DNA of 64,000 nt, from the IMG/VR virus record IMGVR_UViG_3300049215_000070. One strand, given 5' to 3'. The stretch is from a virus (taxonomy: Duplodnaviria > Heunggongvirae > Uroviricota > Caudoviricetes). The notes beneath the pieces are model-generated. The model was given only the letters and a program-made list of their open reading frames with translations. It was not told the origin of the DNA and did not search any database. Positions 1 through 63,955 of the stretch are shown here, piece by piece (position 1 is the first letter of the stretch; each line of letters begins with the position of its first letter). The position numbers and the translations under genes are program-made.

Positions 1-115
1 GGTTGAGAACGTCTGGCAGGCTATTCCTACGGCGGCGCGTGGCAAGATGGTGCGCGCGGACGTTCACGCGGTGCTAGATGCAATCAACCAGCTGGCAATC
101 AAAGAGATTCAATGA
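1..115 (+). CDS. 3' fragment of hypothetical protein (complete copy at 58740..59108)
   Basis: Reads in frame to TGA at 113-115. Identical to the C-terminus ...AINQLAIKEIQ of ORF 58740..59108. Confidence 0.7.
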   Translation, partial: VENVWQAIPTAARGKMVRADVHAVLDAINQLAIKEIQ

Positions 116-594
116 TACTTCAGGATGTCATAGACTTCGCCGCGGGAAGCTTCGACTGCGTTATGGGTTACCCGGGCCGGTACGCCGACGGCAGCAAGGA
201 AAAGCCGCGCACCGGCAGCCGTGAGTACGTCACCTTGCGTCACAGCGCGCCAACGTATGACGCCGCATTTGGCTGGTACCAGGGCAACAACGGCGAGCAC
301 GAGCTGAGCTGCAAAATGATCGCCACGTTAGAAATGGCACGCCGAAGCGTAGGCAAGATCTCGTACAAGCCTAAGCTGTACTGGCGCCATGTTGACAAGG
401 TCGAGATGTATAAGGACGCGTGGAGGGTCGCGCACATCCGCACCCGGCTGTACATCGATGGCGTACGCAGTTACGGCGTCGCGCAAATCAAGGAAGGCCC
501 GCGCGCATACATGCAGCTGGTTGTCGACAACGCCCCTAATGTGGCACTATTGACGCTTCAGGATTATGAGCAGCACACAGGAGAGACAGCATGA
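112..594 (+). CDS. hypothetical protein (160 aa)
   Basis: ATGA start/stop coupling with upstream ORF. GC-rich ORF. No motif recognised. Confidence 0.6.
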   Translation: MILQDVIDFAAGSFDCVMGYPGRYADGSKEKPRTGSREYVTLRHSAPTYDAAFGWYQGNNGEHELSCKMIATLEMARRSVGKISYKPKLYWRHVDKVEMYKDAWRVAHIRTRLYIDGVRSYGVAQIKEGPRAYMQLVVDNAPNVALLTLQDYEQHTGETA

Positions 595-767
595 TTAGGA
601 TTGTGGATGAGAAGATTTTCAGCTTAACTAAAAATCAGTACCGGGATCTTAGATTCGAGTTTGATCAAGACCCAATTTACTGGTACTCGACCGATAAAGA
701 CTTCGAGTATTGGCTGGAAACCGTGAAAAAGATCCAGCACACCACTTACCGCGAAGAGAACCCATGA
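591..767 (+). CDS. small hypothetical protein (58 aa)
   Basis: AGGAGA RBS 8 nt upstream of ATG. ATGA overlap with neighbours on both sides. Confidence 0.5.
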   Translation: MIRIVDEKIFSLTKNQYRDLRFEFDQDPIYWYSTDKDFEYWLETVKKIQHTTYREENP

Positions 768-874
768 AGTACTCCTGGTACGTGATGATGCTGACCTGCG
801 TTTCGTTCGCGCTGGCGGGTGCAATTATCTACTTTGGCGGGCTATTGATGCTTGCGGCGTTTGGTGAGCTATGA
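764..874 (+). CDS. small hydrophobic membrane peptide (36 aa)
   Basis: MKYSWYVMMLTCVSFALAGAIIYFGGLLMLAAFGEL. ATGA coupling at both ends. Confidence 0.45.
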   Translation: MKYSWYVMMLTCVSFALAGAIIYFGGLLMLAAFGEL

Positions 875-1425
875 CAGACCGAGAGATCCTTTTGGTGGTA
901 ATGAAAAGATTGCGCAAATACGCCGAAAGCAAAACTCCTGCAAGCCCAAGATTTTTGAGCATGGAGGCCGACTGGATCGAGCGCAAGATGGGAGAGCAGG
1001 AAATCGAGCGCAATACCGTTAGCGGCTTGTGCGCGCCATTTGTTCCGGGTGATGTCCCAGGTAACGCCGTAGATTTAAAGCCCGTATACTCCGAGCCAGG
1101 AGCCATCAAGCCCGTAGACCCCAAGTTTGAATGCGATTGCGGCGCCAAGGAGTGGGGCACGGAGCATCGCTATTGGTGCCAAACCAATCCTCGTGCAAAC
1201 CATATGCACGCGTGGGTGCGTTTCAATAAGTTCCCGGGGCTGATGAGGTGCATACATGGCGCGTGCCTGGCTGTGTGGGACGATGGGCAGATTTACCCGA
1301 GCTTTGATGCATACCTCAAGTGTCAGGCTTTTCTGGAATCTTGCGAGAAAGAGTCAAAACCAGATCCCTTGCTAGAGCGTCGAGCCGCCGAAGACAAATA
1401 TCTGAACTGGGACTGGGGCTATTGA
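871..1425 (+). CDS. hypothetical protein, Cys/His-rich C-terminal half (possible Zn-binding)
   Basis: 184-aa ORF translationally coupled. Contains CDCG...C..H.H...C.HGAC pattern. Confidence 0.6.
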   Translation: MTDREILLVVMKRLRKYAESKTPASPRFLSMEADWIERKMGEQEIERNTVSGLCAPFVPGDVPGNAVDLKPVYSEPGAIKPVDPKFECDCGAKEWGTEHRYWCQTNPRANHMHAWVRFNKFPGLMRCIHGACLAVWDDGQIYPSFDAYLKCQAFLESCEKESKPDPLLERRAAEDKYLNWDWGY

Positions 1426-1643
1426 TGGCGGACGAGGTATCCCCGGTAATACGCCTTAGGCAGAGGAACTGCATTGGCAGCCGCGGCGCCGAGGATCACG
1501 GCTGGATCAAGGGCTTGGCCGACAAGACCCATCACTGCGCCTTCTGTGGCGTAAGCAAGCCCGACTGGGAGCAGATGATGAATGAGATGTGGTACAGCCC
1601 GGGGATCAACAGCGCGCAGTCTGGGCCAACGGGATACCCATGA
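1425..1643 (+). CDS. small Cys/His-containing protein (72 aa)
   Basis: ATGA overlap with upstream stop. HHCAFCG motif. Confidence 0.45.
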   Translation: MADEVSPVIRLRQRNCIGSRGAEDHGWIKGLADKTHHCAFCGVSKPDWEQMMNEMWYSPGINSAQSGPTGYP

Positions 1644-1684
1644 GCGAAGATTACAAAAATCTGGGAATTATATACTTAACCCCC

Positions 1685-1713
1685 TTGACATCCTTAAGGG
1701 AGTCATCTACACT
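1685..1713 (+). promoter_or_regulatory. sigma70-like promoter: TTGACA - 17 nt - TACACT
   Basis: Perfect -35 TTGACA (1685-1690), 17-nt spacer, -10 TACACT (1708-1713), in an AT-rich gap upstream of the ATG at 1752. Confidence 0.55.
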
Positions 1714-1741
1714 ATCAGCACTGGTTAGATTATTCTTAAGG
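1692..1741. promoter_or_regulatory. pair of palindromic operator-like sites CCTTAAGG (1692-1699) and CTTAAGG (1735-1741) bracketing the -10
   Basis: ATCCTTAAG at 1690-1698 is the exact reverse complement of CTTAAGGAT at 1733-1741. The first site lies in the promoter spacer, the second at about +20. Confidence 0.45.
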
Positions 1742-1751
1742 ATCAGCGCAG

Positions 1752-2009
1752 ATGGCCGAAGTGACACAGTTTGAGCAGGCAATTGACGAAGCCGGGTATG
1801 GTTTTTCCCAAAAAAATCTGACCGAAACCCACGAGACAATTGAGCATTTTGTTGCGGCGCGAGGCAGGCCACTGGTCGTAGATACCGAAAATGGTACTTT
1901 GCACATTTGGGAGAATGTGCAGCAGGCGAAGGGGCTGGTGCGCGGCAGCTTGATTGTGATGGATGCCGGAGATACCCGGTTTGCACATTTCGATGGTGAG
2001 AAGATTTGA
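1752..2009 (+). CDS. hypothetical protein (85 aa)
   Basis: First ORF downstream of the predicted promoter. No motif recognised. Confidence 0.55.
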   Translation: MAEVTQFEQAIDEAGYGFSQKNLTETHETIEHFVAARGRPLVVDTENGTLHIWENVQQAKGLVRGSLIVMDAGDTRFAHFDGEKI

Positions 2010-2042
2010 AATGAACGTCAAGCACCACAATCAGCCAGCTCA

Positions 2043-2276
2043 ATGAATATGAAGTCAGCAGCGCGGACAGTGGCGCGCCAGGAATATCCGGCCAGCCGAC
2101 AGCATCCCGATTGCCACCGTATGGTGGACTGGGAAAAGCCGGTTCTACCCGTTTTGTCACCGGGGATGGCGGCGAAAAGTGGAGGCGTCGTGTCCTCCAT
2201 GCTGCCCCGACATGGGAAGCCGGTGCAATTCCGGCCTGACTTCACTTCCATAAAAGAGGTGCCCCATGGTGACTGA
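2043..2276 (+). CDS. hypothetical protein (77 aa)
   Basis: ORF fills the gap between neighbouring genes. Weak call. Confidence 0.3.
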   Translation: MNMKSAARTVARQEYPASRQHPDCHRMVDWEKPVLPVLSPGMAAKSGGVVSSMLPRHGKPVQFRPDFTSIKEVPHGD

Positions 2277-2526
2277 CGCCGACCCGCCACCGATGCCGAC
2301 CGCCGAGGAAGCATTGCCGGTAGCAACGGCAAGCATTATGACTAAAAAGAAGTTGCAAGAAATGGGCGTCCCCCTTGAGGTCTCAGCATATATTTTGAAG
2401 CTCGAAACAGCTCTCAGGGAAGTTCTTTGGCAATGCCAGCATGGCCGCGCAGGGTCCGCTCCGAGTGACGGAATTGAGCGGCGCATTGAATCGCCAGAGT
2501 TCACAGCAACACAGGGTGACGGGTAA
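2266..2526 (+). CDS. hypothetical protein (86 aa)
   Basis: ORF in the co-directional gene train. No motif. Confidence 0.45.
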   Translation: MVTDADPPPMPTAEEALPVATASIMTKKKLQEMGVPLEVSAYILKLETALREVLWQCQHGRAGSAPSDGIERRIESPEFTATQGDG

Positions 2527-2529
2527 ATC

Positions 2530-2925
2530 GTGGATAGGTTCGAAGCGTTTACGGCGTATTTGATCTCTCTTGCGAAAGAGCGCCCTTACAAAATAGCTGG
2601 TGACGCTGCATGCGGATATTGGATGGCAATAGAATCAATGGCGCGCGCCGCTGAACTTGCAATGCATCAGCCAGCAACATCGAGTGACGGAGTAGAGCAT
2701 GGGAAACCTAAAGTAAAAGCGACGTTGCAAAGTGATGGGGTGTTATACAACACTAAAACACCCTCAGCCACTCCCACGCACGCGCCCGACCCGGAGCGCA
2801 TCGCCAGCCACGCCTGCGGCTACGGCTGCATCGAGCGTGGGCATCCTGAGCCTGACTGCCCCAAGCACGGCTGGGTGGTATCCGAGTGCCCTAGTAACTA
2901 CCTGACGTCGCGTGATACGTGGTAG
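2530..2925 (+). CDS. hypothetical protein immediately upstream of terminase large subunit (candidate small terminase subunit, speculative)
   Basis: GTG start. 131 aa. Sits where a small terminase subunit gene usually sits. C-terminal Cys/His cluster. Confidence 0.4.
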   Translation: MDRFEAFTAYLISLAKERPYKIAGDAACGYWMAIESMARAAELAMHQPATSSDGVEHGKPKVKATLQSDGVLYNTKTPSATPTHAPDPERIASHACGYGCIERGHPEPDCPKHGWVVSECPSNYLTSRDTW

Positions 2926-2982
2926 ATCAAGAAATGACCTACAACCGCCTGAGGGCCTCTGAGCGCCGCGAGACCGAAATGG

Positions 2983-4587
2983 GTGCCACAACCATCTGAC
3001 ATACTGGAGATCGGCCTTCGGCAGGGCTTTACGAAAGCTCAAACTGCAGCAGCGCTTCGCTCTCTTGACGACTTCGAGGTCGAACGTCTGGCGTGGATGT
3101 GCCGCTGGGTTGACGCGCGTCACGCTTTCCAGGTTGTTCCCGACGGGCAATGGTCCAACTGGGTAATCCTGGCCGGGAGAGGCAGCGGCAAGACCCGCGT
3201 AGGCGCCGAGTGGTCTGGCATGCGCTGCGCCATGGGCGAGAAGGGTCACCGTCACCTGGTAGTCGCGCCAACGAAAGCAGACTTGAGGGCGGTGTGCTTT
3301 GAGGGCGACTCTGGGTTGCTACGCGTGATACCGCCCAGCCTTATCAAGTACTACCACAAAACGCCCGCTCCTGAGATCGTGCTGCATAACGGCGCGCTGA
3401 TTGGCGGGATCGCTGCTGAGGCGTTCGAGCGTACCCGAGGCCCGCAGTGGCATGGCGCCTGGTGTGACGAGGTAGCGGCCTGGGGTGAGGGCGGCAAGGC
3501 TGATCCCGAAGAGGTGTGGGACACGATGGTGATGTCCATCCGGTTAGGTCAAGACACCCGCATCCTGGTGACCACGACGCCCAAGAACCGGCCACTGGTG
3601 AAGCGCCTGGTGGCGGATGAAGACAGCGTTATGACGTCCGCTAGCACGCACGTCAACACCTCGAACCTGTCCCCTGAGTTCGCGCGCCGAATCCTCAAGT
3701 ACGACGGCACCAAGATCGGACGGCAGGAGGTCTACGCGGAGCTGATTGACGCCGAGGAAGGCGGCATCATCAGCCGCAGCTGGCTGCGCCATTGGCCCGC
3801 CAACAAGCCGCTGCCTGAGTTCCATTTTATCGTGATGAGCCTGGATACCGCGTTTAGCGAGTCCGACCACGACAAGAAAAAGCAGACCACCGACCCGAGC
3901 GCGTGCAGCGTCTGGGGGTGCTTTAAGTACGAGCGTACGCTGCCCAGCGGGGAAAAGATCGAGAAGCCGGGGATTATTCTGCTGGATTGCTGGGCCGAGC
4001 ACCTTGGTTTTCCGGACCTGGTGGACAAGGTCAAGAACGAGTCAGACCCGGACAAGATCCGCTACGGCAGGAACCTGAGCGCCAAGCCCGTCATCACCCC
4101 AAGCAACGTGCCCAAGGCGTACAGGCGCATGGCACCGCCCAAGATGGGGGGGAGGGCCATTGACCTGATCGTTATCGAGGGCAAGGCCAGCGGCAAGAGC
4201 CTGCGTCAAACGCTGATGAAGGCCGAGATCAACAGCGTGGAGTTTAACCCGGGGAACGCGGACAAGCTCAGCCGGGGCCATTTCATCAGCCCAATCATCA
4301 AAGATGGTATCCTATGGGTACCCGATTCGCCCACCCCGGACAAGAACGGCAACCCCAAGTTCAGGAGCTGGGCCGAGCCATTGGTGGAGCAGCTGTGCAG
4401 CTACAGCGGCGAAGGTTCAGTGGTTCACGACGACTTGTACGACACCGCGACGCAGGGGTTGCGCGTGATCGACTGGTACTGGCTGCACCACCTAGAGCAA
4501 AAAGCCAAGAAAGCTAAAGGCGGCACCGGCATCCACGAGGACCGGCAGCCCGACAAGCGCATCATCACCAACCCGTACGCCGAGTAA
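2983..4587 (+). CDS. terL: terminase large subunit (ATPase + nuclease)
   Basis: Walker A VILAGRGSGKT. Length 534 aa. Followed by the portal gene. N-terminus uncertain: GTG at 2983, or first in-frame ATG at 3097. Confidence 0.85.
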   Translation: MPQPSDILEIGLRQGFTKAQTAAALRSLDDFEVERLAWMCRWVDARHAFQVVPDGQWSNWVILAGRGSGKTRVGAEWSGMRCAMGEKGHRHLVVAPTKADLRAVCFEGDSGLLRVIPPSLIKYYHKTPAPEIVLHNGALIGGIAAEAFERTRGPQWHGAWCDEVAAWGEGGKADPEEVWDTMVMSIRLGQDTRILVTTTPKNRPLVKRLVADEDSVMTSASTHVNTSNLSPEFARRILKYDGTKIGRQEVYAELIDAEEGGIISRSWLRHWPANKPLPEFHFIVMSLDTAFSESDHDKKKQTTDPSACSVWGCFKYERTLPSGEKIEKPGIILLDCWAEHLGFPDLVDKVKNESDPDKIRYGRNLSAKPVITPSNVPKAYRRMAPPKMGGRAIDLIVIEGKASGKSLRQTLMKAEINSVEFNPGNADKLSRGHFISPIIKDGILWVPDSPTPDKNGNPKFRSWAEPLVEQLCSYSGEGSVVHDDLYDTATQGLRVIDWYWLHHLEQKAKKAKGGTGIHEDRQPDKRIITNPYAE

Positions 4588-4589
4588 CT

Positions 4590-4907
4590 ATGGCAACCGA
4601 ACTAAGCTTTAACGCAGTCACGACCAACGCCGACGGAAGCGCGTTGACCCTGCCGGTGACCTACACCGCCCTGATCGACACCGTCAACCCGCCCGTGAAA
4701 GCGTACCCCATCCAGGCGAACATAGCCCCGGTGGCTGGTTTGATTATCGTGACCTTTGCCGAGCTGGGCTTCGTGCCTGCCGCGAACCAGAAGTACTTCG
4801 TTGAGGTGACCGCTACCGACAGCGCCGGAACTTCTGGACCCTCCAACGAGGCGACGTTCACCAACACGGTCGTGCTCAGCGAGCCGACGGGTTTAAAGGT
4901 TGGCTGA
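4590..4907 (+). CDS. hypothetical protein between terminase and portal (105 aa; carries a polymorphic residue, L vs P, between the two copies)
   Basis: ATG 2 nt after the terminase stop. The two sequence copies differ at 4893. Confidence 0.55.
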   Translation: MATELSFNAVTTNADGSALTLPVTYTALIDTVNPPVKAYPIQANIAPVAGLIIVTFAELGFVPAANQKYFVEVTATDSAGTSGPSNEATFTNTVVLSEPTGLKVG

Positions 4908-4962
4908 TCCGGTTATGGAACTGGATCAAGGAACTATTCAAGCCCTACTGAGCCGCTAAACT

Positions 4963-7635
4963 ATGTCGTCAGAATCCCAAATCCTGCAGAGCTTCGACGT
5001 CGAATCCCCCGAGGACGACCCAAACACCGACATCGCCACGGATGCCGCGGAGCGTAGCCAGGGCAAGGTGCCTGATGACGCCGACACCAAAGAGCTAGAC
5101 GACGGCTCAGCGATTCTGGCGCTGCATGACAACCGTGAGGTGGCTAAGGCCAAAGAGTTCTACGTCAACCTTGCCGAAGATATCCCAGAGGATCAGCTGC
5201 GTGACATCAGCACCAAGCTTCTTGACTTGTTTGATAAGGATGTTCAGGCGCGCGAAGACCGCGACAAGCAGTACGCCGAGGGGCTGCGTCGAACTGGGTT
5301 TTCTCAGGATGCACCTGGCGGCGCTAATTTCGATGGAGCTTCTAAGGTAGTTCACCCGCTGGTAGCGGAGGTAGCCATAGACTTCAGCGCGCGAGCGATC
5401 AAGGAACTGTGGCCCGCTGGTGGACCGTGCAAGGACAAGATCGTCGGCGAGCCTGACAACAAAAAGGAAGAGAAAGCCAAGCGAAAGGTGCGATGGCTCA
5501 ACTGGCAGATGACCGAGGGCATGCCGAGCATGCGCTACGAGATGGAGCAGATCCTGACGCAGGTGCCCATGGGCGGCGTGCAGTACTCCAAGCTCTGGTG
5601 GGACGTTAAGCGCAAGACGCCCGTGCATGAGGCGGTGTGGGTTGACGAGATCGTGCTGCCGTTTGCGGCGACTGATTTTTACTCAAGCCCGCGCAAGGCT
5701 CATATCCAGAAACTGGACGAGTTCACATTCCAAGACCGGGTGCGCAAGGGAATCTACCGTGACGTTGACACCATTGCGCTGGTTACTCAGCCGGATGAGA
5801 CGAAGGCTGAGCAGGCCAACAACCGCATCGAGGGAAAGTCGCAGACCAACTACAACGAGGACGGTCAGCGGGTTGTCATTGAGTTCGACGTGCAGTACGT
5901 GGTGCCTGACAGCGAGCGCGGCGTGGATGACCTCGATGATGCCGACGATATAGGTCCGGCGCCTTACCTGATTACGATTGACAAGGAGACGCGCAGTGTC
6001 CTCAGCATCTACCGAAACTGGGACGAGGACGACGAGAACATGGACGCCCTGGTCCATATCATCGAGTGGCCGTTCTTGCCGTGGCGCGGTGCTATGCCCA
6101 TTGGAGCGCCGCAAGTACTGGGAGGGATTGCGGCTGCTGCCACAGGAGCGCTCCGCGCCCTTCTGGATTCAGCCCTCATCAACAATTTTCCCGGCGGCGT
6201 CAGGCTCAAGTCAGGTCCAGTCGGTGGTCAATCTGTCACCGTAAGCGCCGGTCAGACTGCGGAGATTGACGGCGGGATCATGCAGGATGATATCCGCAAA
6301 ACCTTCATGCCGACGCCCGCGAACCCCACCAGTGCGGTGCTTCTGCAGCTGCTTGAGTTCCTGGTCGACAGCGGGCACGAGGTCGTCAAGACCACGCTGG
6401 ATGAGGCTAACGATAACGCCAATGTTCCCGTCGGGACCATCATGGCGCGCATCGAGCAGCAGATGGTGGTGTTCAGCGCCATCCACAGCCGACTCCACAA
6501 TGCGATGGGCAAGCTGCTGAAGGTGCTGCACCGTCTCAACGCCACCTACCTTGAGGACGATGACGTCGTATCCAAGACCGGCGAAAAGATGGTATTCAAG
6601 GCCGACTTTGACGCCCCGGATGATGTGATACCGGTATCAGACCCGGAGATATTCAGCGAGCTTCAGCGCATCGCCCAGGTGCAGACGGTAGCGCAGCGTG
6701 CGCAGCTGTTCCCGCAGCTGTACGACCAGCGCAAGGTTGAGCAGTCGATTCTCAAGATGATGAAGCTAACCGACCCGGAGCAGTACCTGCTGCCCAAGCC
6801 AGAACCGAAGCCGCTCAACGCGGTCAACGAAAACATCGCCGCCAGCCTTGGGCAGCCCATTACCGCGTTCCCAGACCAGGATCACCTTGCGCACATTCAA
6901 TCGCATATGTCGTTCATTGAAGACCCGCTATTCGGGGCAAACCCCCTCATGGCAGCTCAGGCGATTGGTGGCATACTCCAGAACGTCAAGGAGCACATGC
7001 TATTTTGGTACGGCACTGAGATACACCGCATCGCCTCTGAGGCCGCGGGTACTGACATATCTGAGTTCATGACCATAAAGGATGCCGAGGTGCAGACCAA
7101 GTTCGACGGCATGCTGGCCGCGGCAACGAACAATGTCCATGCGCAGAGCATGGCGGTGTTTGGCAAGCTCCCACCGGCTATCGCGAAAGCGCAGGCCATG
7201 CTGAAGCAGTTCAGCCAGCCGCCGCCGATGGACCCGAGCCAGGTCGCACTCCAGAAGGTTCAGGCAGACACCCAGCTTAAGCAGCAGCAGCTGCAGCAGC
7301 AGGCTCAGACTGATGCCCAGAACGCCGCGCTCAAGAACGCCGAAATCGCGCTTGAAGGTAAGACCCAAGAGGCGCAAATGACTGCCGACCAGCAAAGCGA
7401 CCAACTGGATGCCCAGAACAATCAGCTGAACAACCAAACCAAACAGCAAATTGCGGCGCACTCTGACCAGACCAAGCAGTCTGTTGCTCAATCTGAAAAC
7501 GCGACGAAGCTTACCGTTACCGCTCAGGACAACGAGGTGGCGCTGGAGATCGCGGGCGCGGAGCTGGCCGCTGGCAAGCACACCAACATCAAGAACGGAC
7601 AAGCAGTCGGCAAAGAAGACGGCGCCGCCAAGTAA
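4963..7635 (+). CDS. portal protein (890 aa) with Gln-rich coiled-coil C-terminal extension
   Basis: Large ORF directly after the terminase large subunit and before the scaffold and capsid genes. C-terminal QLKQQQLQQQAQ... low-complexity tail. Assignment by position and size. Confidence 0.65.
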   Translation: MSSESQILQSFDVESPEDDPNTDIATDAAERSQGKVPDDADTKELDDGSAILALHDNREVAKAKEFYVNLAEDIPEDQLRDISTKLLDLFDKDVQAREDRDKQYAEGLRRTGFSQDAPGGANFDGASKVVHPLVAEVAIDFSARAIKELWPAGGPCKDKIVGEPDNKKEEKAKRKVRWLNWQMTEGMPSMRYEMEQILTQVPMGGVQYSKLWWDVKRKTPVHEAVWVDEIVLPFAATDFYSSPRKAHIQKLDEFTFQDRVRKGIYRDVDTIALVTQPDETKAEQANNRIEGKSQTNYNEDGQRVVIEFDVQYVVPDSERGVDDLDDADDIGPAPYLITIDKETRSVLSIYRNWDEDDENMDALVHIIEWPFLPWRGAMPIGAPQVLGGIAAAATGALRALLDSALINNFPGGVRLKSGPVGGQSVTVSAGQTAEIDGGIMQDDIRKTFMPTPANPTSAVLLQLLEFLVDSGHEVVKTTLDEANDNANVPVGTIMARIEQQMVVFSAIHSRLHNAMGKLLKVLHRLNATYLEDDDVVSKTGEKMVFKADFDAPDDVIPVSDPEIFSELQRIAQVQTVAQRAQLFPQLYDQRKVEQSILKMMKLTDPEQYLLPKPEPKPLNAVNENIAASLGQPITAFPDQDHLAHIQSHMSFIEDPLFGANPLMAAQAIGGILQNVKEHMLFWYGTEIHRIASEAAGTDISEFMTIKDAEVQTKFDGMLAAATNNVHAQSMAVFGKLPPAIAKAQAMLKQFSQPPPMDPSQVALQKVQADTQLKQQQLQQQAQTDAQNAALKNAEIALEGKTQEAQMTADQQSDQLDAQNNQLNNQTKQQIAAHSDQTKQSVAQSENATKLTVTAQDNEVALEIAGAELAAGKHTNIKNGQAVGKEDGAAK

Positions 7636-9238: not shown

Positions 9239-9314
9239 TGCGGGATAGTTCAGTTAGCAGAACAGGCGGCTCATACCCGCTACGTCGCAGGTGCAACTCC
9301 TGTTCCCGCATCCA
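9239..9314 (+). tRNA. tRNA-Met (or Ile2) anticodon CAT, 76 nt with encoded CCA
   Basis: Hand-folded cloverleaf. Acceptor TGCGGGA/TCCCGCA 7 bp. U8, A14. D-stem GTTC/GAAC. Anticodon stem GGCGG/CCGCT. Loop CTCATAC (U33, CAU, A37). T-stem GCAGG/CCTGT. T-loop TGCAACT (G55 atypical). Discriminator U, then CCA. Confidence 0.7.
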
Positions 9315-11877: not shown

Positions 11878-12795
11878 ATGGCAGTCCCAATGCGCAGTAC
11901 AGACTTCCGCAACATCGTTGAGCCGATTCTCAACGAAGAGTTCGACGGAGTCTACGAGCAACGCGCCGACGAGTGGAACCAGGTATTCAAGCAGATTACC
12001 GGTATCCCCCGCTCATACCATGAAGAGCCTGTGCTGTTCGGCTTTAGCGCCGCGCCCTTGCTCCCCGACGGTCAGCCCGTCACCTACCAGGCTGGCGGAC
12101 AATTGTTCGTCTACCGGTACTTCTATCAGGTCTACGGCTTGGCGTTCGCGCTGACCAAGGTCCTCGTGGAAGACGGCGACCACATCCGCATCGGCCAGAC
12201 GTACTCGCGCCATCTCGCGCAGTCGCTGATCGAAACCAAAGAGACGCTCTGCGCCAACGTGATCAACCGCGCTTTCAACAGCTCGTTTGTCGGCGGCGAT
12301 GGTGTCTCGCTCATTAACGCGGCTCACCCGATTCAGAACGCGGGAAGCTTCAGCAACATCCTGGGCACGGCGGCTGCGCTGTCTCAGACGTCGCTTGAGC
12401 AGATCCTGATTCAGATTCGCGGCGCGGTTGACAATAACGGTAAGAAAATCCGCCTGGAGCCGAAGAAGCTCGTGGTGGCCCCGTCGAACGTGTTCCAAGC
12501 GGAAGTGCTCCTAAAGAGCGTGCTCCGTACCGGCACCACGAACAATGACATTAACCCGATCAAGTCCATGGGCTTGCTCAGCGGTGGTCAAGCGAACCTG
12601 TCGCGTCTGACCAGCAACACGGCCTGGTTCGTCCAGACCGACGCCCCCGAGGGCTTGAAGCTGGTGAATCGTCGGTCCTTGCAAAAAAGCATGGAGGGGG
12701 ATTTTGAAACGGATTCAATACGTTACAAAGCAACGGAGCGCTATGCCGTCGGCTTCACGGACCCTCGATGTCTTTTCGGTACGCCTGGGTTATGA
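11878..12795 (+). CDS. major capsid protein (HK97 fold)
   Basis: AAGGAG RBS. 305 aa. Sequence character typical of HK97-fold major capsid proteins. Position after the scaffold. Followed by a strong terminator. Confidence 0.75.
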   Translation: MAVPMRSTDFRNIVEPILNEEFDGVYEQRADEWNQVFKQITGIPRSYHEEPVLFGFSAAPLLPDGQPVTYQAGGQLFVYRYFYQVYGLAFALTKVLVEDGDHIRIGQTYSRHLAQSLIETKETLCANVINRAFNSSFVGGDGVSLINAAHPIQNAGSFSNILGTAAALSQTSLEQILIQIRGAVDNNGKKIRLEPKKLVVAPSNVFQAEVLLKSVLRTGTTNNDINPIKSMGLLSGGQANLSRLTSNTAWFVQTDAPEGLKLVNRRSLQKSMEGDFETDSIRYKATERYAVGFTDPRCLFGTPGL

Positions 12796-12801
12796 GTAAC
12801 G

Positions 12802-12833
12802 CGGGTCAGTAAAATGACCCGTATCCTTTAAAA
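12802..12833 (+). terminator. rho-independent terminator after the major capsid gene
   Basis: CGGGTCA gtaaaa TGACCCG (7-bp perfect stem) followed by TATCCTTTAAAA. Confidence 0.6.
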
Positions 12834-12840
12834 CCATGTT

Positions 12841-12876
12841 AGACTCTCTTCTGGAGTAATAACCAGGAGAGAGTCT
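12841..12876 (+). promoter_or_regulatory. RBS-sequestering hairpin in front of the endonuclease VII gene
   Basis: AGACTCTCTTCTGG agtaataa CCAGGAGAGAGTCT: 14-bp stem with one mismatch. The 3' arm contains the AGGAGA RBS and abuts the TTG start at 12876. Confidence 0.5.
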
Positions 12877-13364
12877 TGAAACTCTGTACAATCGATGGGT
12901 GCGGCAACAAGCACCAAGCCAAAGGCATGTGTAACAAGCACTACATGCGCCAATGGTATCTCGATCACCCTGAAGGCAAGATTGCCGCCAAGGTGAGAAT
13001 GAGTCAGGTTCCGCGTGCGATAATGCGGGACAGGGCGCTGCGATACGCTTACGGGGTTGACTCGAAGTGGTACGCAGAGCAACTGGCAAAACAGAACGGC
13101 GTGTGCGCCATCTGTCACAAGCCAGAAACGAAGTTCATGAAGGGCACGCTAATGCGGCTCGCAGTGGACCACTGCCACGACACCGGCAAGGTGCGCGGCC
13201 TCTTATGCCAGGCGTGCAATCGCGGCATAGGCTGTTTCAATCATGACCCGATGTTGCTACGCAGCGCCATCGAGTATCTTTCACCTACGGTCAGCCCAAC
13301 ACCGACCCCTGAAGGCTGGCCTCTGATCCGCTGCCGGGGTAGCGCCTCTACGACACACGCCTGA
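12876..13364 (+). CDS. endonuclease VII-type HNH (homing) endonuclease
   Basis: AVDHCHDTGKVRGLLCQACNRGIG motif. N-terminal CxxC...C..H Zn motif. TTG start with AGGAGA RBS. Confidence 0.8.
   Translation: MKLCTIDGCGNKHQAKGMCNKHYMRQWYLDHPEGKIAAKVRMSQVPRAIMRDRALRYAYGVDSKWYAEQLAKQNGVCAICHKPETKFMKGTLMRLAVDHCHDTGKVRGLLCQACNRGIGCFNHDPMLLRSAIEYLSPTVSPTPTPEGWPLIRCRGSASTTHA
13289..13315 (+). repeat. 27-bp direct repeat, copy A (GTCAGCCCAACACCGACCCCTGAAGGC)
   Basis: Matches 13440..13466 with one mismatch. Lies inside the 3' end of the endonuclease VII ORF. Confidence 0.8.
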
Positions 13365-13439
13365 AAAACGTTCTTGTCGCAAGCGCCCCCGGCATTTTGA
13401 TTTCTTCTCTCAAACCGTAGCCACGCTACGATAACCAGC

Positions 13440-13466
13440 GTCAGCCCAAAACCGACCCCTGAAGGC
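13440..13466 (+). repeat. 27-bp direct repeat, copy B (GTCAGCCCAAAACCGACCCCTGAAGGC)
   Basis: Lies in the intergenic region 33 nt upstream of the next gene start (13499). Confidence 0.8.
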
Positions 13467-13498
13467 GGCGAGAAAGCACGAGGCGCAAAGGTGCAATA

Positions 13499-14743
13499 AT
13501 GCGTACATCCCTATCCGGTCCTGTAATCCTTTACGGGAACGACAATCCCCAGCAGATCAGCGAAACTGACTCTGGTCCGAACATCGACTACCAGGCCAAT
13601 GCCGTACTCGACTCTCGCTACGTTTCGCAGGTAACTGCGGCTGGCGAAGGAGCACAAGCAGGCATCCTTTGCTGGTCAAACCCTGTTGAGATGGAGCTTC
13701 TGAGCTACGTCCCGGCAGCGGCCAACGCCGCCAACATCGCCGCCGCTCAGTCGCCGACAGTGGGCGGATTCTTCACGCTCGCGACAAGCAGCACCAACGC
13801 AGTCTGCGCGAACATCCCGCTGGTCCCTCAAGGTACCGCGATTCAGCCGACGGCGACCACAATCCCTGTCCTGGCTTTGGACTTTGGCTTTGCTCAGGTC
13901 ACCACGACCACGGCGGCGGGCACGGCGAACATTCTCACGATTACTGGTCCTTCTCCGACCGGTTACACCTCGACCGCCACCTACGGTTCGCGTTTTTTCT
14001 ACCCGGGTCAGCGCATCCTGGTAGGCGGCGCGGGCAACGCCGCGGGCACGGTTCCGCTGTCCACCATCGTTCTAGCGACCGACCGTTACGCAGCCCCGGG
14101 CTACGCGGTGCAGGCCGCTGGCACGGTACTGATTGCAAACAACGCGCTCTTCGCGGGCACCAACCTTCCGGTCGGCACCAGCGATCAAGAGTACGGCGTC
14201 GCCGTCAAGCCGGTCGTCAAAGCTGGCGCGGCTCGCGTCTATGATCCGGCGCAGATGGGCACACGTCAGGTTATCGTCACCGCATCCGGCGCCTCCACGG
14301 GCACTGTTACCATTCGCGGTTACGACATATACGAGCAGCCGATGTCTGAAACACAGACCATTGTCGGCTCGGGTGTGACGGTTCCGAAAAAGGCTTTCGG
14401 CTACGTCTCCAGCGTCCAGCTGAACGTTGGCTCGACGCTGACGGGCACGCTTTCGGTGGGAACAAACAGCACCATCGGTCTACCGATCCGTGTTGACGAG
14501 TTTGAGTACGCCGGGATATTCGTCAGCGGCGCTCAGATTTTTTCAGCAACCGGACTCACGTTTGCCGACCAAACCCCGACGGCCACCTCTACCACGGGCG
14601 ACGTGCGTGGAACCTACACGATGCAGACGGCGCCGAACGGCACCACGAACCGTGTGGTGCTCTTCTACCAGAAGCCCATCGCGACAGCCAAGGTATCCAG
14701 CAACATCGACTTCCGTGGCTTCACGGGCGTCACCAACGCTTAA
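13499..14743 (+). CDS. virion structural protein (414 aa, Thr/Ala/Gly-rich)
   Basis: Large ORF in the structural block. No specific motif. Confidence 0.55.
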   Translation: MRTSLSGPVILYGNDNPQQISETDSGPNIDYQANAVLDSRYVSQVTAAGEGAQAGILCWSNPVEMELLSYVPAAANAANIAAAQSPTVGGFFTLATSSTNAVCANIPLVPQGTAIQPTATTIPVLALDFGFAQVTTTTAAGTANILTITGPSPTGYTSTATYGSRFFYPGQRILVGGAGNAAGTVPLSTIVLATDRYAAPGYAVQAAGTVLIANNALFAGTNLPVGTSDQEYGVAVKPVVKAGAARVYDPAQMGTRQVIVTASGASTGTVTIRGYDIYEQPMSETQTIVGSGVTVPKKAFGYVSSVQLNVGSTLTGTLSVGTNSTIGLPIRVDEFEYAGIFVSGAQIFSATGLTFADQTPTATSTTGDVRGTYTMQTAPNGTTNRVVLFYQKPIATAKVSSNIDFRGFTGVTNA

Positions 14744-15263: not shown

Positions 15264-15298
15264 GCGGCAGTTAAAAGGCAGTATGATAAAATTGACGT

Positions 15299-15736
15299 AT
15301 GCCAAAAGCCAAGGATGCGTCAAAGAGATTTTTCACCGGGGTACCATGTAAGCATGGTCACATATCGGAGCGATGGACCAACAATGGACGTTGCATCGAA
15401 TGCCGGATGAATTATCAGGGAACCAGGAAAGACTACTATCGGCGCAAGGGTCGAGAGGCTTACTGGAATGATCCAGACAGAAAACAAAAAACCCTGGACA
15501 ACACCAGGAAGCAGCGCGGACTACCACAGCCGGAAAGACCGCCGCCAGCACACTGCGAATTGTGCGGCAAAAAATCAACCAGGAATTTATGCCTGGATCA
15601 CGACCACCAAAACGGCAGGTTTCGCGGCTGGCTATGCGGCAATTGCAATAGCGGTCTCGGTAAGCTTGGCGACACATCGGAAGCACTAATGAAAGCACTC
15701 GCTTACTTGGACAGGGCGTCACAGTCATGGCGGTGA
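15299..15736 (+). CDS. endonuclease VII-type HNH (homing) endonuclease, second copy
   Basis: LCLDHDHQNGRFRGWLCGNCNSGLGKLGD plus N-terminal C..H...C..C Zn motif. Lower GC than its flanks. Confidence 0.8.
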   Translation: MPKAKDASKRFFTGVPCKHGHISERWTNNGRCIECRMNYQGTRKDYYRRKGREAYWNDPDRKQKTLDNTRKQRGLPQPERPPPAHCELCGKKSTRNLCLDHDHQNGRFRGWLCGNCNSGLGKLGDTSEALMKALAYLDRASQSWR

Positions 15737-20814: not shown

Positions 20815-21357
20815 ATGTCAGCCTTCGACGTTGCATTTGAACAGCTCATCGGCATTGAAGGAAGATACTCCAGCGACGAGTCCGACCCGGGCAACTGGAC
20901 ATCAGGCAAGGTTGGAACCGGAGAGTGTCGTGGCACTATGTACGGGATCTCTGCAGCAGCGTACCCAAACCTGGATATTGCGGGGCTTAGTCTCGCCAAA
21001 GCCAAGTCAATCTATTTCACTGACTACTGGAGCAGGCTCCGGTGCTCAAACTTTCCCGATGCCATAGCGATTGCGCTTTTCAAGGAAGGCGTAAATCTTG
21101 GGGTTGAGGGCGCAGCGAAAGCGCTCCAGCGCAGCTTAAAAGCCACCGTCGACGGCAACATCGGGCAGCTGACAATTGGCCTTGCCACGTCCAAGGCACC
21201 GAAAGACTGCCTCACCGATTTCCTGACGCAGTGCGCTTACGATTACACGCAAATGGAAAATTTCAAGATTGACGGCAAGGGCTGGCTGTCGCGCGTCATC
21301 AAGACCGCGGTTGAGTCTACGCTTACCGGCAACGAGCTTATGGAGCTTAAAGCGTAA
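20815..21357 (+). CDS. endolysin, glycoside hydrolase family 108-like with C-terminal peptidoglycan-binding region
   Basis: AFEQLIGIEGRYSSDESDPGNWTSGKVGTGECRGTMYGIS matches the GH108 N-terminal signature. GGAGG RBS. Confidence 0.7.
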   Translation: MSAFDVAFEQLIGIEGRYSSDESDPGNWTSGKVGTGECRGTMYGISAAAYPNLDIAGLSLAKAKSIYFTDYWSRLRCSNFPDAIAIALFKEGVNLGVEGAAKALQRSLKATVDGNIGQLTIGLATSKAPKDCLTDFLTQCAYDYTQMENFKIDGKGWLSRVIKTAVESTLTGNELMELKA

Positions 21358-21757
21358 ATCTCAGCAAGTACGCCTTCATCGAATCCAGAATCTCTGGTCG
21401 ATCCCTGGTTGCGCCAAGAACCAGGCTGCACTGCGAACAAAGCAGCCCACGGATAACACCGCTGGCGTGGAAATGGTCCACATGGGGCGTATCGTCCTCA
21501 GTGGTAAAATGGTTGGGGCAGATGGCGCATTTCCCCCCTTGGGATTGGAGCATGTCATTGTACTGCTCAGGGGTGATGCCCCACTTCCTGCGCCTGTGAG
21601 CCGCACTGAAGAACTCGGGTCCTTTTCTTGCGCGGTAAGCAAAATCCCAGGCTTTCCTGCACTTTTTACATGCGGTCTGAAGCCCGTCTTTCATTTTTTT
21701 GGCGCGGTTAAATTCAGAATGCGGCAGATCACTCTTACACCCAGAGCAGTATTTCAT
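21347..21757 (-). CDS. endonuclease VII-type HNH (homing) endonuclease, third copy
   Basis: KCAICPNHFTTEDDTPHVDHFHASGVIRGLLCSQCSLVLG. Start taken at MKYCSGCKS. Convergent with the endolysin (11-bp overlap), divergent with the holin. Confidence 0.75.
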   Translation of the reverse strand: MKYCSGCKSDLPHSEFNRAKKMKDGLQTACKKCRKAWDFAYRARKGPEFFSAAHRRRKWGITPEQYNDMLQSQGGKCAICPNHFTTEDDTPHVDHFHASGVIRGLLCSQCSLVLGATRDRPEILDSMKAYLLRFTL

Positions 21758-22205
21758 GGGAATTTTCGACACAGTTATCGCTCCAATTGCCAGTATAATA
21801 AATCGTATTATACCTGACAAAGCAGCCGCAGCCGCTGCAATTGCACAACTCAATCAATTGACCCTGCAAGGCCAACTCCAAGAGGAACTGGTCCAGCTGC
21901 AGTCTGTCACGGTCAATCAAACCGACGTCAACAAAGTAGAGGCTGCTAGTCCTAGCATGTTTGTCGCTGGTCCTCGCCCCGCTATAATGTGGGTGTGCGC
22001 ACTTGCTCTGTTTTACCAGTACCTAGTGAGGCCAATAGCCACTGGATTGGCGTTAATTGCATCGCATCCAATTCCCGCGCCAGGGCTCCCAGGAATAGAC
22101 GACAACCTGTACCAACTTATGTTCGCGTTGCTTGGCATTGGAGCGATGCGTTCTTACGACAAAACAAAAGGAACAGAAACAAAATCAGTTTCTTTTTTTA
22201 AATAG
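21747..22205 (+). CDS. holin (3-TM type; MGIFDTVIAPIA... N-terminus)
   Basis: Three hydrophobic segments. N-terminal motif recalled from 3-TM holins of Gram-negative phages. Adjacent to the endolysin. Confidence 0.5.
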   Translation, partial: QYFMGIFDTVIAPIASIINRIIPDKAAAAAAIAQLNQLTLQGQLQEELVQLQSVTVNQTDVNKVEAASPSMFVAGPRPAIMWVCALALFYQYLVRPIATGLALIASHPIPAPGLPGIDDNLYQLMFALLGIGAMRSYDKTKGTETKSVSFFK

Positions 22206-34909: not shown

Positions 34910-36040
34910 ATGTCAAACACACCCGATGAACGTTCAGTCAAGATCGCTAAACTCCACGCCAAGGGCCTTTCCCAAAGGGAAATAGCCAAAAAACTCGGCA
35001 TCGCGCAAAGCACCGTCTCGGAGCGCCTCAAAAAAGTAGGCGGCTCATTCCCCGCACCAGACGGGCATTACGTCAAAGCAACCTCCACCCTTTACAGCCC
35101 AGACGGCGAGATCAAGCTTCAGTGGGTGAAATCTAGCCTAGATGAAGAGGCGCGTCAAGCAGCAGAGAAGGCCGCATTTGCGGCACTGTGCGAGACGCTG
35201 CCACGGTATGTGCCGACCAACGGCCCCGGGCACACCGACGCGGAGCTTGCGAACCTGTACGTGTTTACAGATTGTCACGTAGGCATGCTGGCATGGGGCA
35301 AGGAAACCGGGGACGACTGGGACACGGGAATCGCTGAGCGCACGCTGATTCGAACTTTCGAGGCAATGATCGCGGGCAGCCCCAAGGCGCGGGTTGCTAT
35401 AATTGGGCAGATGGGGGATTTTTTGCATTTTGACGGTTTACTGGCCGTTACCCCCACATCCAAGCACGTACTTGACGCCGACAGCCGATTCTCAAAAATT
35501 GTCAAGATCGCGATACGGGTGCTGCGGTACATCATCGACATGGCGCTTCTCAATCACGAGGAGGTCCACGTCGTCATGGCGGACGCGAATCACGACCCGG
35601 CGAGCCAGGTTTGGCTGCGGCACATGTTCACCGCGCTGTACGAGAACGAGCCGCGCGTCAAGGTCAACGACAGCGAAAAGCCTTTCTATGCGTACCAGCA
35701 CGGCGAAACCATGATCGGGTTTCACCACGGGCACACGCTGAAAAAAGAAAAGCTCCCGCTGCTGCTTGCCACGCTGTACCCCAAGATGTGGGGCAACACG
35801 CTCAAGCGATACTGCCACACCGGTCATCTGCACACGGTGGACGAGGTCGAGGCCAACGGCATGAAGATCGTGCAGCATCCCACTATTGCCGCCAAGGACG
35901 CGTACGCGGTTCGTAACGGCTGGGTAAGTCAGCGACAAGCATCATGCATTACCTATCACCAGTCTTATGGCGAAGTCGGTCGCACCGTCGTCTGCCCCGA
36001 GATGTTCGAGACAATTAATGGACCCACAAACCCTCATTGA
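34910..36040 (+). CDS. HTH (sigma70 region-4/LuxR-like) fused to a calcineurin-like metallophosphoesterase domain
   Basis: GLSQREIAKKLGIAQSTVSERLKK helix-turn-helix. Phosphoesterase motifs DCHVG, GDFLHFDG, ANHD, HHGH, GHLH in canonical order. Confidence 0.6.
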   Translation: MSNTPDERSVKIAKLHAKGLSQREIAKKLGIAQSTVSERLKKVGGSFPAPDGHYVKATSTLYSPDGEIKLQWVKSSLDEEARQAAEKAAFAALCETLPRYVPTNGPGHTDAELANLYVFTDCHVGMLAWGKETGDDWDTGIAERTLIRTFEAMIAGSPKARVAIIGQMGDFLHFDGLLAVTPTSKHVLDADSRFSKIVKIAIRVLRYIIDMALLNHEEVHVVMADANHDPASQVWLRHMFTALYENEPRVKVNDSEKPFYAYQHGETMIGFHHGHTLKKEKLPLLLATLYPKMWGNTLKRYCHTGHLHTVDEVEANGMKIVQHPTIAAKDAYAVRNGWVSQRQASCITYHQSYGEVGRTVVCPEMFETINGPTNPH

Positions 36041-58743: not shown

Positions 58744-59108
58744 CCCAGGTAAAGTGCCATCAGAAGGAGTCCGGCCCATCCTTGCGCATCGAGGAAAGGC
58801 CGGACGGCCCTGTCGTTGAGATCGACCAGAACGGCGGCATCACGCTGCACCGTGCCCCGCCGGATGAGGCCGGACGGTTGTTCTGGGAGGCGGTCAACTT
58901 CAACGGGATAACGTACCGGGAAATCATCGAGAAACTCAACCAAAAAATCGACACGCTGATGCTGGACCCGTTTCGGTCCATAGTTCACGGCCCGGTTGAG
59001 AACGTCTGGCAGGCTATTCCTACGGCGGCGCGTGGCAAGATGGTGCGCGCGGACGTTCACGCGGTGCTAGATGCAATCAACCAGCTGGCAATCAAAGAGA
59101 TTCAATGA
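58740..59108 (+). CDS. hypothetical protein (122 aa)
   Basis: ATGA coupling. Its 3' end equals window positions 1..115. Confidence 0.5.
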   Translation: MTQVKCHQKESGPSLRIEERPDGPVVEIDQNGGITLHRAPPDEAGRLFWEAVNFNGITYREIIEKLNQKIDTLMLDPFRSIVHGPVENVWQAIPTAARGKMVRADVHAVLDAINQLAIKEIQ

Positions 59109-59587
59109 TACTTCAGGATGTCATAGACTTCGCCGCGGGAAGCTTCGACTGCGTTATGGGTTACCCGGGCCGGTACGCCGACGGCAGCAAGGAAAAGCCG
59201 CGCACCGGCAGCCGTGAGTACGTCACCTTGCGTCACAGCGCGCCAACGTATGACGCCGCATTTGGCTGGTACCAGGGCAACAACGGCGAGCACGAGCTGA
59301 GCTGCAAAATGATCGCCACGTTAGAAATGGCACGCCGAAGCGTAGGCAAGATCTCGTACAAGCCTAAGCTGTACTGGCGCCATGTTGACAAGGTCGAGAT
59401 GTATAAGGACGCGTGGAGGGTCGCGCACATCCGCACCCGGCTGTACATCGATGGCGTACGCAGTTACGGCGTCGCGCAAATCAAGGAAGGCCCGCGCGCA
59501 TACATGCAGCTGGTTGTCGACAACGCCCCTAATGTGGCACTATTGACGCTTCAGGATTATGAGCAGCACACAGGAGAGACAGCATGA
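59105..59587 (+). CDS. hypothetical protein (second copy of 112..594)
   Basis: Identical translation. Confidence 0.6.
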   Translation: MILQDVIDFAAGSFDCVMGYPGRYADGSKEKPRTGSREYVTLRHSAPTYDAAFGWYQGNNGEHELSCKMIATLEMARRSVGKISYKPKLYWRHVDKVEMYKDAWRVAHIRTRLYIDGVRSYGVAQIKEGPRAYMQLVVDNAPNVALLTLQDYEQHTGETA

Positions 59588-59863
59588 TTAGGATTGTGGA
59601 TGAGAAGATTTTCAGCTTAACTAAAAATCAGTACCGGGATCTTAGATTCGAGTTTGATCAAGACCCAATTTACTGGTACTCGACCGATAAAGACTTCGAG
59701 TATTGGCTGGAAACCGTGAAAAAGATCCAGCACACCACTTACCGCGAAGAGAACCCATGAAGTACTCCTGGTACGTGATGATGCTGACCTGCGTTTCGTT
59801 CGCGCTGGCGGGTGCAATTATCTACTTTGGCGGGCTATTGATGCTTGCGGCGTTTGGTGAGCT

Positions 59864-60418: not shown

Positions 60419-60677
60419 TGGCGGACGAGGTATCCCCGGTAATACGCCTTAGGCAGAGGAACTGCATTGGCAGCCGCGGCGCCGAGGATCACGGCTGGAT
60501 CAAGGGCTTGGCCGACAAGACCCATCACTGCGCCTTCTGTGGCGTAAGCAAGCCCGACTGGGAGCAGATGATGAATGAGATGTGGTACAGCCCGGGGATC
60601 AACAGCGCGCAGTCTGGGCCAACGGGATACCCATGAGCGAAGATTACAAAAATCTGGGAATTATATACTTAACCCCC

Positions 60678-60706
60678 TTGACATCCTTAAGGGAGTCATC
60701 TACACT
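60678..60706 (+). promoter_or_regulatory. second copy of the TTGACA-17-TACACT promoter with CCTTAAGG operators
   Basis: Identical to 1685..1713. Confidence 0.55.
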
Positions 60707-63580: not shown

Positions 63581-63582
63581 CT

Positions 63583-63900: not shown

Positions 63901-63955
63901 TCCGGTTATGGAACTGGATCAAGGAACTATTCAAGACCTACTGAGCCGCTAAACT

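Follow-up and report, generated by a model that had tools for sequence, protein, structure and literature searches.

The DNA analysed here (hereafter the window) is a stretch of 64,000 nucleotides (nt) from the IMG/VR virus record IMGVR_UViG_3300049215_000070, a member of the Caudoviricetes, and this work concerns a small nuclease gene lying directly after its major capsid gene. The capsid gene (11878..12795, + strand) encodes a 305-residue HK97-type protein of the Phage_capsid_4 family (Pfam PF25209, E 6.5e-11), which has more than 597 relatives in IMG/VR. It is followed by a native hairpin of 8 bp (12801..12822, + strand), by a longer hairpin (12841..12876, + strand) and by an open reading frame (ORF) for a 162-residue endonuclease VII-type nuclease (12876..13364, + strand). 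A 27-nt sequence then occurs twice on the same strand (copy 1, or A1, at 13290..13316 and copy 2, or A2, at 13440..13466), the copies being separated by 123 nt called spacer B (13317..13439, + strand), and the right-hand anchor of this variable site is a downstream gene, here named geneX (13499..14743, + strand; 414 residues), for which no family match was obtained. The comparators which proved informative were all metagenomic, namely IMG/VR, JGI, ENA and Logan contigs, cited below by locus number (L003 and so on). GenBank phages were dropped for this purpose: the closest cultured relatives, the Caulobacter phages RW, KcrB, RLK and GB2A, share 74.5% DNA identity in the capsid gene only and are too distant for intergenic alignment.

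The original prediction for this locus had named the gene an endonuclease VII-type nuclease, and the assignment to the DHHRN (beta-beta-alpha-metal) group is now well founded. In fact, the protein matches Pfam PF02945 Endonuclease_7 with E 1.4e-21 (76.6 bits, the curated cut-off being 23.6) and the PHROG family 'endonuclease VII' with 2.4e-33, and all the residues that define the DHHRN group, CX2-4C … D-H-x-H … R … CX2C-N (PMC6083498), are present in its translation as C77xxC80, D98-H99-x-H101, R107 and C111xxC114-N115. The best solved relatives are Hpy99I (6e-9) and then T4 endonuclease VII (2e-3). The conserved core stops at ...AIEYL (13280), the point at which relatives terminate, after IEYLQ or IEYLL (L004, L187 and L188). 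To judge from this comparison, residues 136-162 are an accidental read-through tail of 27 codons, drawn from repeat copy 1 and from native intergenic DNA. At the other end of the gene, a Shine-Dalgarno sequence AGGAGA (12865-12870) and a TTG start codon (12876-12878) can be read off the sequence (12865..12878, + strand), and the presence of ATG at the homologous codon in L087, L090, L004 and L257 supports TTG as the true start.

This start region is buried in the longer hairpin, which consists of a 5' arm AGACTCTCTTCTGG (12841-12854), a loop of 8 nt (12855-12862) and a 3' arm CCAGGAGAGAGTCT (12863-12876), with 14 pairs including one G-U. The 3' arm contains AGGAGA and the first base of the TTG start (12876), and the 14-bp stem foreseen from the sequence stood up to the fold-energy check, giving -23.2 kcal/mol and a z-score of -6.0, a stability which none of 200 shuffled sequences equalled. 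No known RNA family was matched between 12600 and 13700 at E <= 1. Relatives were scanned for stems of at least 9 pairs and -14 kcal/mol or lower, with a Shine-Dalgarno in the 3' arm and a start codon within 9 nt, and such hairpins were found at 12 of 118 distinct endonuclease VII ORFs compared with 7 of 3217 other ORFs of the same loci, these counts being made with L187 and L188 moved from the control class to the nuclease class, as their nuclease genes were fetched later. Six additional cassettes reached through a protein database all carried the structure (6/6). When 15 distinct cassettes were folded jointly with RNAalifold, a 9-pair core emerged in which 93% of cells were paired and 7 of the 9 pairs showed compensatory double changes; none of 500 shuffles reached the observed covariation and slid registers attained only 42-63%. 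Though stem sequences differ among cassettes, the 3' arm always holds the Shine-Dalgarno and ends 0-5 nt from the start codon. Moreover, U-G pairs are frequent in the stems, which indicates that it is the sense-strand RNA, rather than a DNA cruciform, that forms them. The hairpin is a conserved structure covering the ribosome-binding site, through which translation of the nuclease would be affected.

At the 5' edge of the hairpin lies an extended -10 motif, TGTTAGACT (12837..12845, + strand; TGn plus TAGACT, of the form TGnTAnnnT), from which transcription is predicted to start 7-8 nt after the hexamer, i.e. at about 12852-12855, in the last bases of the 5' arm or at the first base of the loop. 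Just 5' of the stem, the TG, T and A positions (columns T-G-n-T-A-n-A) show no or almost no variation across the 15 distinct cassettes. Of 20 upstream regions that bear the hairpin, 16 have TGNTANNNT terminating 7-11 nt ahead of the first base of the loop, the background frequency of the motif being 5.1e-4 per nt. The motif takes the form TGATATAAT in L004, TGCTATAAT in L260 and TGGTATAAT in L172, and distant cassettes possess full -35/-10 pairs in equivalent placement (TTGACG-17-TATACT in L116 and TTGACT-17-TATGGT in L124).

Such an arrangement would allow the ribosome site to respond to the origin of the transcript. The abundant read-through capsid mRNA has both arms and would fold, leaving the nuclease untranslated, and transcripts starting at about 12852-12855 from the cassette promoter would lack the 5' arm and keep the ribosome site accessible. 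Calculations put the exposure of 12864-12878 at 18.6-19.1 kcal/mol for the read-through RNA and at 4.5-5.3 kcal/mol for the RNA from the predicted start, some 14 kcal/mol lower. Nuclease synthesis would in this way be uncoupled from capsid expression and held low. We infer the activity of the promoter and the differential translation of long and short transcripts from the motif and from these calculations, and the control design, by analogy, as one of the T4 I-TevI/segB/mobE type. The likeness to T4 I-TevI and the seg genes drawn in the original prediction was apt, and its expectation that translation would be restricted to read-through or late transcripts has to be turned round, as the read-through RNA folds and is expected to be silenced, translation being expected from transcripts of the promoter in the 5' arm. 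Since the promoter is of host type and not T4-late, the permissive transcript is probably not late-specific, and the silenced message would be the late capsid mRNA.

Regarding the passage of capsid transcripts into the cassette, the strong terminator that had been placed at 12802..12833 was not recovered. The structure at this position is the 8-bp hairpin of 12801..12822 (-14.3 kcal/mol, z -4.25), whose tail, UAUCCUUUAAAA (also given as UAUCCUUU), lacks the U-tract of an intrinsic terminator, and a terminator scan made no call at it; L090 and L095 have a similar hairpin after the capsid stop. A better terminator candidate is found 3' of the nuclease gene, where a stem (13330-13394) precedes a U-rich tract (13395-13411). 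Because the terminator-like structure follows the nuclease gene, this gene is probably inside the capsid transcription unit, and capsid transcripts should traverse the cassette.

Related genes and leaders display other arrangements. The genome encodes three paralogous nuclease genes, the second of which (15299-15736, within 15284-15736; Pfam E 2.6e-17) is also of endonuclease VII type and has neither hairpin nor Shine-Dalgarno. It is preceded by an extended -10 motif, TGATAAAAT (15284-15292), which ends 6 nt 5' of the ATG and is kept in the L095 homologue, and a leaderless transcript could be another way of tying translation to a cassette promoter. This gene was detected in L095 (81%) and L087 (56%) and not in the other compared relatives. 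The third endonuclease VII-type gene (21347-21853, - strand) is 40% identical to the L088 nuclease in a tblastn comparison (E 5e-12). In a subgroup of loci (L021, L039, L057, L103, L106, L111 and L120), a conserved AGTCCAA lies 5' of the nuclease genes, followed by a GC-rich hairpin that stops just before the Shine-Dalgarno, not over it, resembling seg43(25) of Aeromonas phage 25 (PMC2988022). In L111, the gene immediately 3' of the nuclease (2783-3496) has a hairpin of -24.6 kcal/mol which covers its own Shine-Dalgarno.

The occupancy of the site was established from loci fetched in two ways. An endonuclease VII-type gene lies directly 3' of the capsid gene in 13 of 96 distinct loci fetched with the capsid, and a capsid homologue lies just 5' of the nuclease in 35 of 59 loci fetched with the nuclease, some of these capsids being only 30-36% identical. 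At least three nuclease subtypes occur at the site, i.e. the window type, one of 248 residues (L088) and one that has three zinc modules (L003 and L084). Other relatives have the site empty (L085, L086, L093, L094, L180, L183 and L190), with an intergenic region of 119-183 nt that contains an ordinary terminator and one repeat core, and with the 414-residue geneX directly 3' of the capsid gene. A near-isogenic trio could be assembled from an empty-site locus (L183), a window-type cassette (L087) and a cassette of another type (L088). In it, the mismatch density is 1.3-2.3% in the initial 780 nt of the capsid gene, rises about tenfold to 18-23% in its last 138 nt and, once the ATG of the next gene is reached, is down again to 2.2-3.8%. 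The same jump in divergence is seen on the capsid side between L090 and L092. The pattern is the footprint of a localised exchange with co-conversion, as expected for homing. In L095, moreover, the nuclease ORF (3536-3937) is cut off after CQAC, with the catalytic N and the C-terminus replaced and a terminator following, in a backbone 96-100% identical to that of L090 across the capsid gene and with a different downstream gene. This is apparently a decaying copy, matching an invasion-decay cycle.

The capsid gene is the likely target gene of homing. Its product is 99.7-100% identical to the L003 and L090 counterparts, the DNA being only about 81-87% identical and the differences nearly all synonymous, which indicates very strong purifying selection on the protein as judged from these comparisons. 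Within the last 130 nt or so of the gene there is a synonymous haplotype linked to the nuclease, with the core CAAAAAAGCATGGAGGGGGATTTTGAAACGGATTCAATACGTTACAAAGC (12682..12731, + strand). It is near-exact among same-type cassette genomes in the window, L087, L090 and L095, differs once in L004 and is missing from L187 and L188, of the same type, in that comparison, and empty-site genomes differ from it at many third-codon positions. The haplotype is a candidate for the co-conversion tract or for a putative immunity allele.

Taken together, the nuclease gene has the features of a free-standing, homing-type mobile cassette with predicted endonuclease activity and a predicted target, placed in a site that is intergenic in relatives, and the empty-site relatives bear out the original prediction in this respect. 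Cassettes of this nuclease clade would seem to specialise in the site just 3' of HK97-type capsid genes, and the switch described above apparently moves together with the cassette.

The 27-nt repeat provides information on how the cassette arrived. The two copies match at 26 of 27 positions, so the repeat with one mismatch that had been described is real, its first copy lying one base to the right of 13289..13315. The sequence is found nowhere else in the genome, none of 100 shuffles gave two matches, and a pattern search of IMG/VR with the 27-mer matched one contig. Copy 2 is native, a conserved element with which the leader of the next gene begins. Its core, GACCCCGGAAGGCGC, occurs once, 30-45 nt 5' of the ATG, in almost all relatives, nuclease-bearing or not, and the empty sites L085, L086, L093, L094, L180 and L190 hold it as a single copy, as had been anticipated for relatives lacking the insert. 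Diverged versions of the element exist in L183, L188, L004 and L088, and homology with L003 resumes exactly at copy 2. Copy 1 forms part of the 3' end of the cassette. In the sister cassettes L087, L090, L257 and L263, the nuclease ORF enters, or ends just before, a single native copy of the element, the L087 ORF extending to a TAATG that overlaps the start of the next gene. Because these sister cassettes show the ORF abutting a single element, copy 1 is assigned to the cassette, and the fusion of cassette and element is, on this comparison, ancestral to the nuclease subtype of the window.

Spacer B corresponds to the native intergenic DNA between the capsid gene and the next gene. Besides the stem and U-rich tract already mentioned it includes a small hairpin, CGTAGCCACGCTACG (13416-13430); it folds with -38.8 kcal/mol (z -2.7), and from 13395-13439 onward it is colinear with the empty-site relatives L180 and L183 and with L084. 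At its left edge, the sequence CTGGCCTCTGA (13316..13326, + strand) matches the capsid gene ends of relatives (CCTGGCCTCTAA in L183 and GGGACTCTGATC in L085) and is probably what remains of the 3' end of an older capsid gene (…P G L stop). L084, with a different nuclease type, has the same layout, in which the last 42 nt of a capsid gene, in degenerate form, and a complete native intergenic region lie 3' of the nuclease. As native intergenic DNA and an old capsid-end remnant are located between the two copies, the right-hand junction would be illegitimate, not homologous. The repeat may accordingly be understood as a recombination-junction scar, a by-product of the acquisition of the cassette. 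In this scheme, the cassette would have been acquired by a recombination in which some 130 nt at the end of the capsid gene were exchanged as well; cassette and fused element copy would have become attached to the recipient through an illegitimate joint lying a few bases 5' of the old capsid stop, leaving in place the native intergenic region and the recipient's own element (copy 2); and, as a side effect of the junction, the nuclease ORF would have gained 27 codons from non-coding DNA.

Several other accounts of the element were tried and rejected. An origin as an ancient scar of the capsid 3' end had been suggested by a likeness seen by eye (CACCGACCC…CGGAA.GC), for which local alignment against shuffles in 16 genomes gave p 0.09-0.99. 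A role as an RNA structure is at odds with the fold of 13425-13505 (z +0.8), and one as a genome-wide promoter or operator motif with the existence of only two copies, two-mismatch matches being at chance level. A 150-nt tandem duplication, or a miniature element inserted between the repeats, was discarded because nothing is repeated beyond the 27 nt and the spacer is colinear with intergenic DNA of relatives.

The reading that best accommodates these data is that 12837-13316 constitutes a mobile DHHRN homing-type cassette equipped with a promoter and a hairpin switch, the repeat being a scar of its acquisition, and we would give it a probability of about 0.68. A number of observations weigh against it. 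With respect to mobility, co-conversion was demonstrated on the sister cassettes L183/L087/L088 and L090/L092, and both this process and the junction history are transferred to the window from sister lineages because no near-isogenic empty-site or donor relative of the window phage was found, exact-protein look-ups giving the same phage only. As for the junction, the putative capsid-end remnant is only 11 nt long, and a T (CCCCTGAAGG) common to both repeat copies is rare in relatives, which suggests either later gene conversion between the copies or an event more recent than the sampled relatives resolve. Concerning the switch, covariation within the six closest cassettes taken alone was unconvincing, 48 of 500 shuffles being as good. 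A simple sigma-70 -35/-10 scan made no call at 12837-12845, where a convincing -35 is missing in the window; the promoter is a motif prediction; and the -10 hexamer is partly inside the stem, so that its conservation is not fully independent of pairing.

A bolder and doubtful reading sees in the locus a whole clade of DHHRN homing genes of uncultivated phages, specialised on the 3' flank of HK97-type capsid genes and carrying a portable 'transcript-origin sensor' made of a host-type extended -10 promoter and a hairpin over the ribosome site, with the conserved 27-mer of the right-hand junction as recognition or operator site of the nuclease and its duplicate as a decoy or autoregulatory copy instead of a passive scar. 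A related and slightly less probable proposal is that the repeat is functional in both copies, as nuclease recognition or operator site or in the regulation of the next gene, the duplication being kept by selection. The block GACCCCGGAAGGCGC…GCACGA of the geneX leader (13454-13490, with homologous leaders in L003-L190) is near-invariant in most relatives, with proteins down to 57% identical, amid intergenic surroundings that drift freely, and this invariance of the core, with four diverged exceptions, favours a function, as do the greater likeness of the window copies to each other (26/27, with the rare T) than of copy 2 to its L180 or L084 counterpart, the heavy mutation of the element in L088, bearer of the other nuclease type, and the precedent of autorepression by I-TevI, which binds an operator resembling its own homing site (PMC2988022). 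Nevertheless, two true copies exist in the window only, copy 1 falls inside the accidental tail of the ORF, and the element has no RNA structure and no further copy in the genome. Moreover, genomes conserve it equally well whether or not they have a nuclease, which speaks for a role in expression of the next gene and not for a cleavage target.

Comparably unlikely is the idea that the hairpin has its function in the capsid mRNA, where it would stabilise the 3' end, be a processing site or terminate weakly, its overlap with the ribosome site being incidental. The position of the hairpin, 46 nt after the capsid stop, would suit such a task, and in L087, L257 and L259, where the native terminator is lost or displaced, it is the sole post-capsid structure. 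However, it moves with the cassette and is missing from empty sites, which have ordinary terminators. The constant placement of the Shine-Dalgarno in the 3' arm despite differing stems would not be expected from a capsid function, the hairpin lacks a U-tract, and the -10 motif at its fixed offset finds no role in this model.

A still smaller probability is assigned to the nuclease being a working component of the phage. T4 gp49 is a Holliday-junction resolvase and HK97 gp74 is an HNH packaging cofactor, and the window nuclease might be a counterpart of either one, considering that it falls in the Pfam family of T4 endonuclease VII and is found among head genes (terminase, portal and capsid). 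Against this, homing and restriction enzymes form a clade separate from the resolvases (PMC6083498), and in sequence the site-specific Hpy99I is a nearer relative of the protein than T4 endonuclease VII is. Furthermore, an essential resolvase or packaging role is argued against by the sporadic distribution of the gene (13/96), by subtype replacement, in which near-identical backbones have no nuclease, the same type or another type, and by decay, as in the truncated L095 copy, and the genome has three paralogues. Finally, the repeats as a target-site duplication or direct insertion signature of the nuclease gene, as first interpreted, can practically be discarded: insert-free relatives do have one copy and the repeat is far beyond chance, but both copies are situated at or beyond the 3' end of the nuclease instead of flanking the gene, the 123 nt they bracket are native intergenic DNA, the four same-type sister cassettes are single-copy, and homing by double-strand-break repair makes no target duplications.

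The gene set of the phage in which the locus resides includes a large terminase, a portal and a capsid protein. The ORFs at 112-594, 871-1425 and 2983-4587 appear again 58,993 nt further on, window positions 1-5007 being the same as 58994-64000. From this it follows that the window runs past the end of a phage genome of about 59 kb (about 58,993 bp), which is either circular or terminally redundant. Copies of the same phage at 99.9% identity or above (99.9-100%) are present in the ENA and Logan assemblies ERZ12298641/44 and ERR9963780/88. Genome bins gave no host assignment, since the contigs are phage fragments and the bins span inconsistent phyla. A tRNA-Met (CAT) lies at 9239-9314, between the portal region and the head genes, and an ORF of 1386 residues (35967-40127) contains a GNAT acetyltransferase domain at residues 253-332 (Pfam E 2e-7), unusual for an apparent tail or structural region.

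Regarding its meaning, T4 copes with a toxic selfish nuclease in a highly expressed, essential operon by silencing it through a hairpin on the read-through mRNA and making it only from a promoter internal to that structure, and the window locus would be an instance of this solution in a phage lineage that is unrelated and uncultivated, with another nuclease family and another promoter type. The principle is already known from phage T4, so that the locus is a well-documented further example and not a new mechanism; what makes it valuable is its broad comparative support together with a natural series of alleles. In this context, natural 'isogenic' trios (empty, type a, type b) delimit the co-conversion tract in the capsid gene, and they can help to locate the cleavage site of a DHHRN homing enzyme and to make sense of the mosaic boundaries in phage head genes. 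In annotations, the nuclease start should be given as TTG, its last 27 codons as accidental read-through, and the 27-nt repeat should not be taken as a transposon-style duplication.

Comparison with known systems places the catalytic half of the nuclease closest, among solved structures, to Hpy99I (PDB 3fc3), with which it shares the beta-beta-alpha-metal fold, Hpy99I being a bacterial restriction enzyme with a partner methylase and not a phage mobile gene. T4 gene 49, the archetype of the Pfam family, is under the same kind of regulation, relieved on transcripts that start inside the structure. A review of the T-even systems (PMC2988022) refers to a paper from 1988 on how gene 49 (endonuclease VII) is regulated, and describes ribosome-site sequestration on long polycistronic transcripts for T4 soc, e, 39, 25 and 26. 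Genes such as soc and e share this sequestration with the window locus but are residents with phage functions, not mobile cassettes. The founding DHHRN (Endo VII motif) homing endonuclease is F-CphI of cyanophage S-PM2 (PMC6083498), which has the same CxxC … DHxH … R … CxxC-N motif and is likewise encoded by a free-standing gene adjoining a conserved phage gene. The two differ in the N-terminal DNA-binding region, where the window protein has one zinc-type module (Cx3GCx7GxCxxHY), and in the target, which is psbA for F-CphI and the capsid gene in the window; homing has been shown for F-CphI and is here deduced.

The closest parallels in control are T4 I-TevI, I-TevII, I-TevIII and segB, and mobE of Aeh1, which combine a hairpin hiding the Shine-Dalgarno with an internal promoter (PMC2988022). 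In these T-even homing genes, as in the window, a hairpin buries the Shine-Dalgarno on long transcripts from the promoter of an upstream host gene, the nuclease is embedded (in the window, probably) in the polycistronic unit of an essential gene, and a promoter just 5' of the nuclease ORF, predicted in our case, yields transcripts free of the inhibitory 5' sequence. On the other hand, the T-even genes use the T4 late promoter TATAAATA and encode GIY-YIG or classical HNH enzymes, whereas the window has a host-type extended -10 (TGnTAnnnT) and an endonuclease VII/DHHRN enzyme, in an unrelated, uncultivated phage of about 59 kb. With regard to mobility, free-standing homing is associated with co-conversion of flanking markers and with nuclease genes at recombination boundaries (PMC2790892, PMC10448857), and both T4 mobE (PMC2790892) and the systems of Barth et al. 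2023 (PMC10448857) resemble the present locus in their sporadic occurrence beside an essential gene and in the sharp rise of divergence in its adjoining part. The window site differs from them in having three competing nuclease subtypes, and the window lineage in keeping a junction scar, composed of the duplicated 27-mer and the native intergenic DNA.

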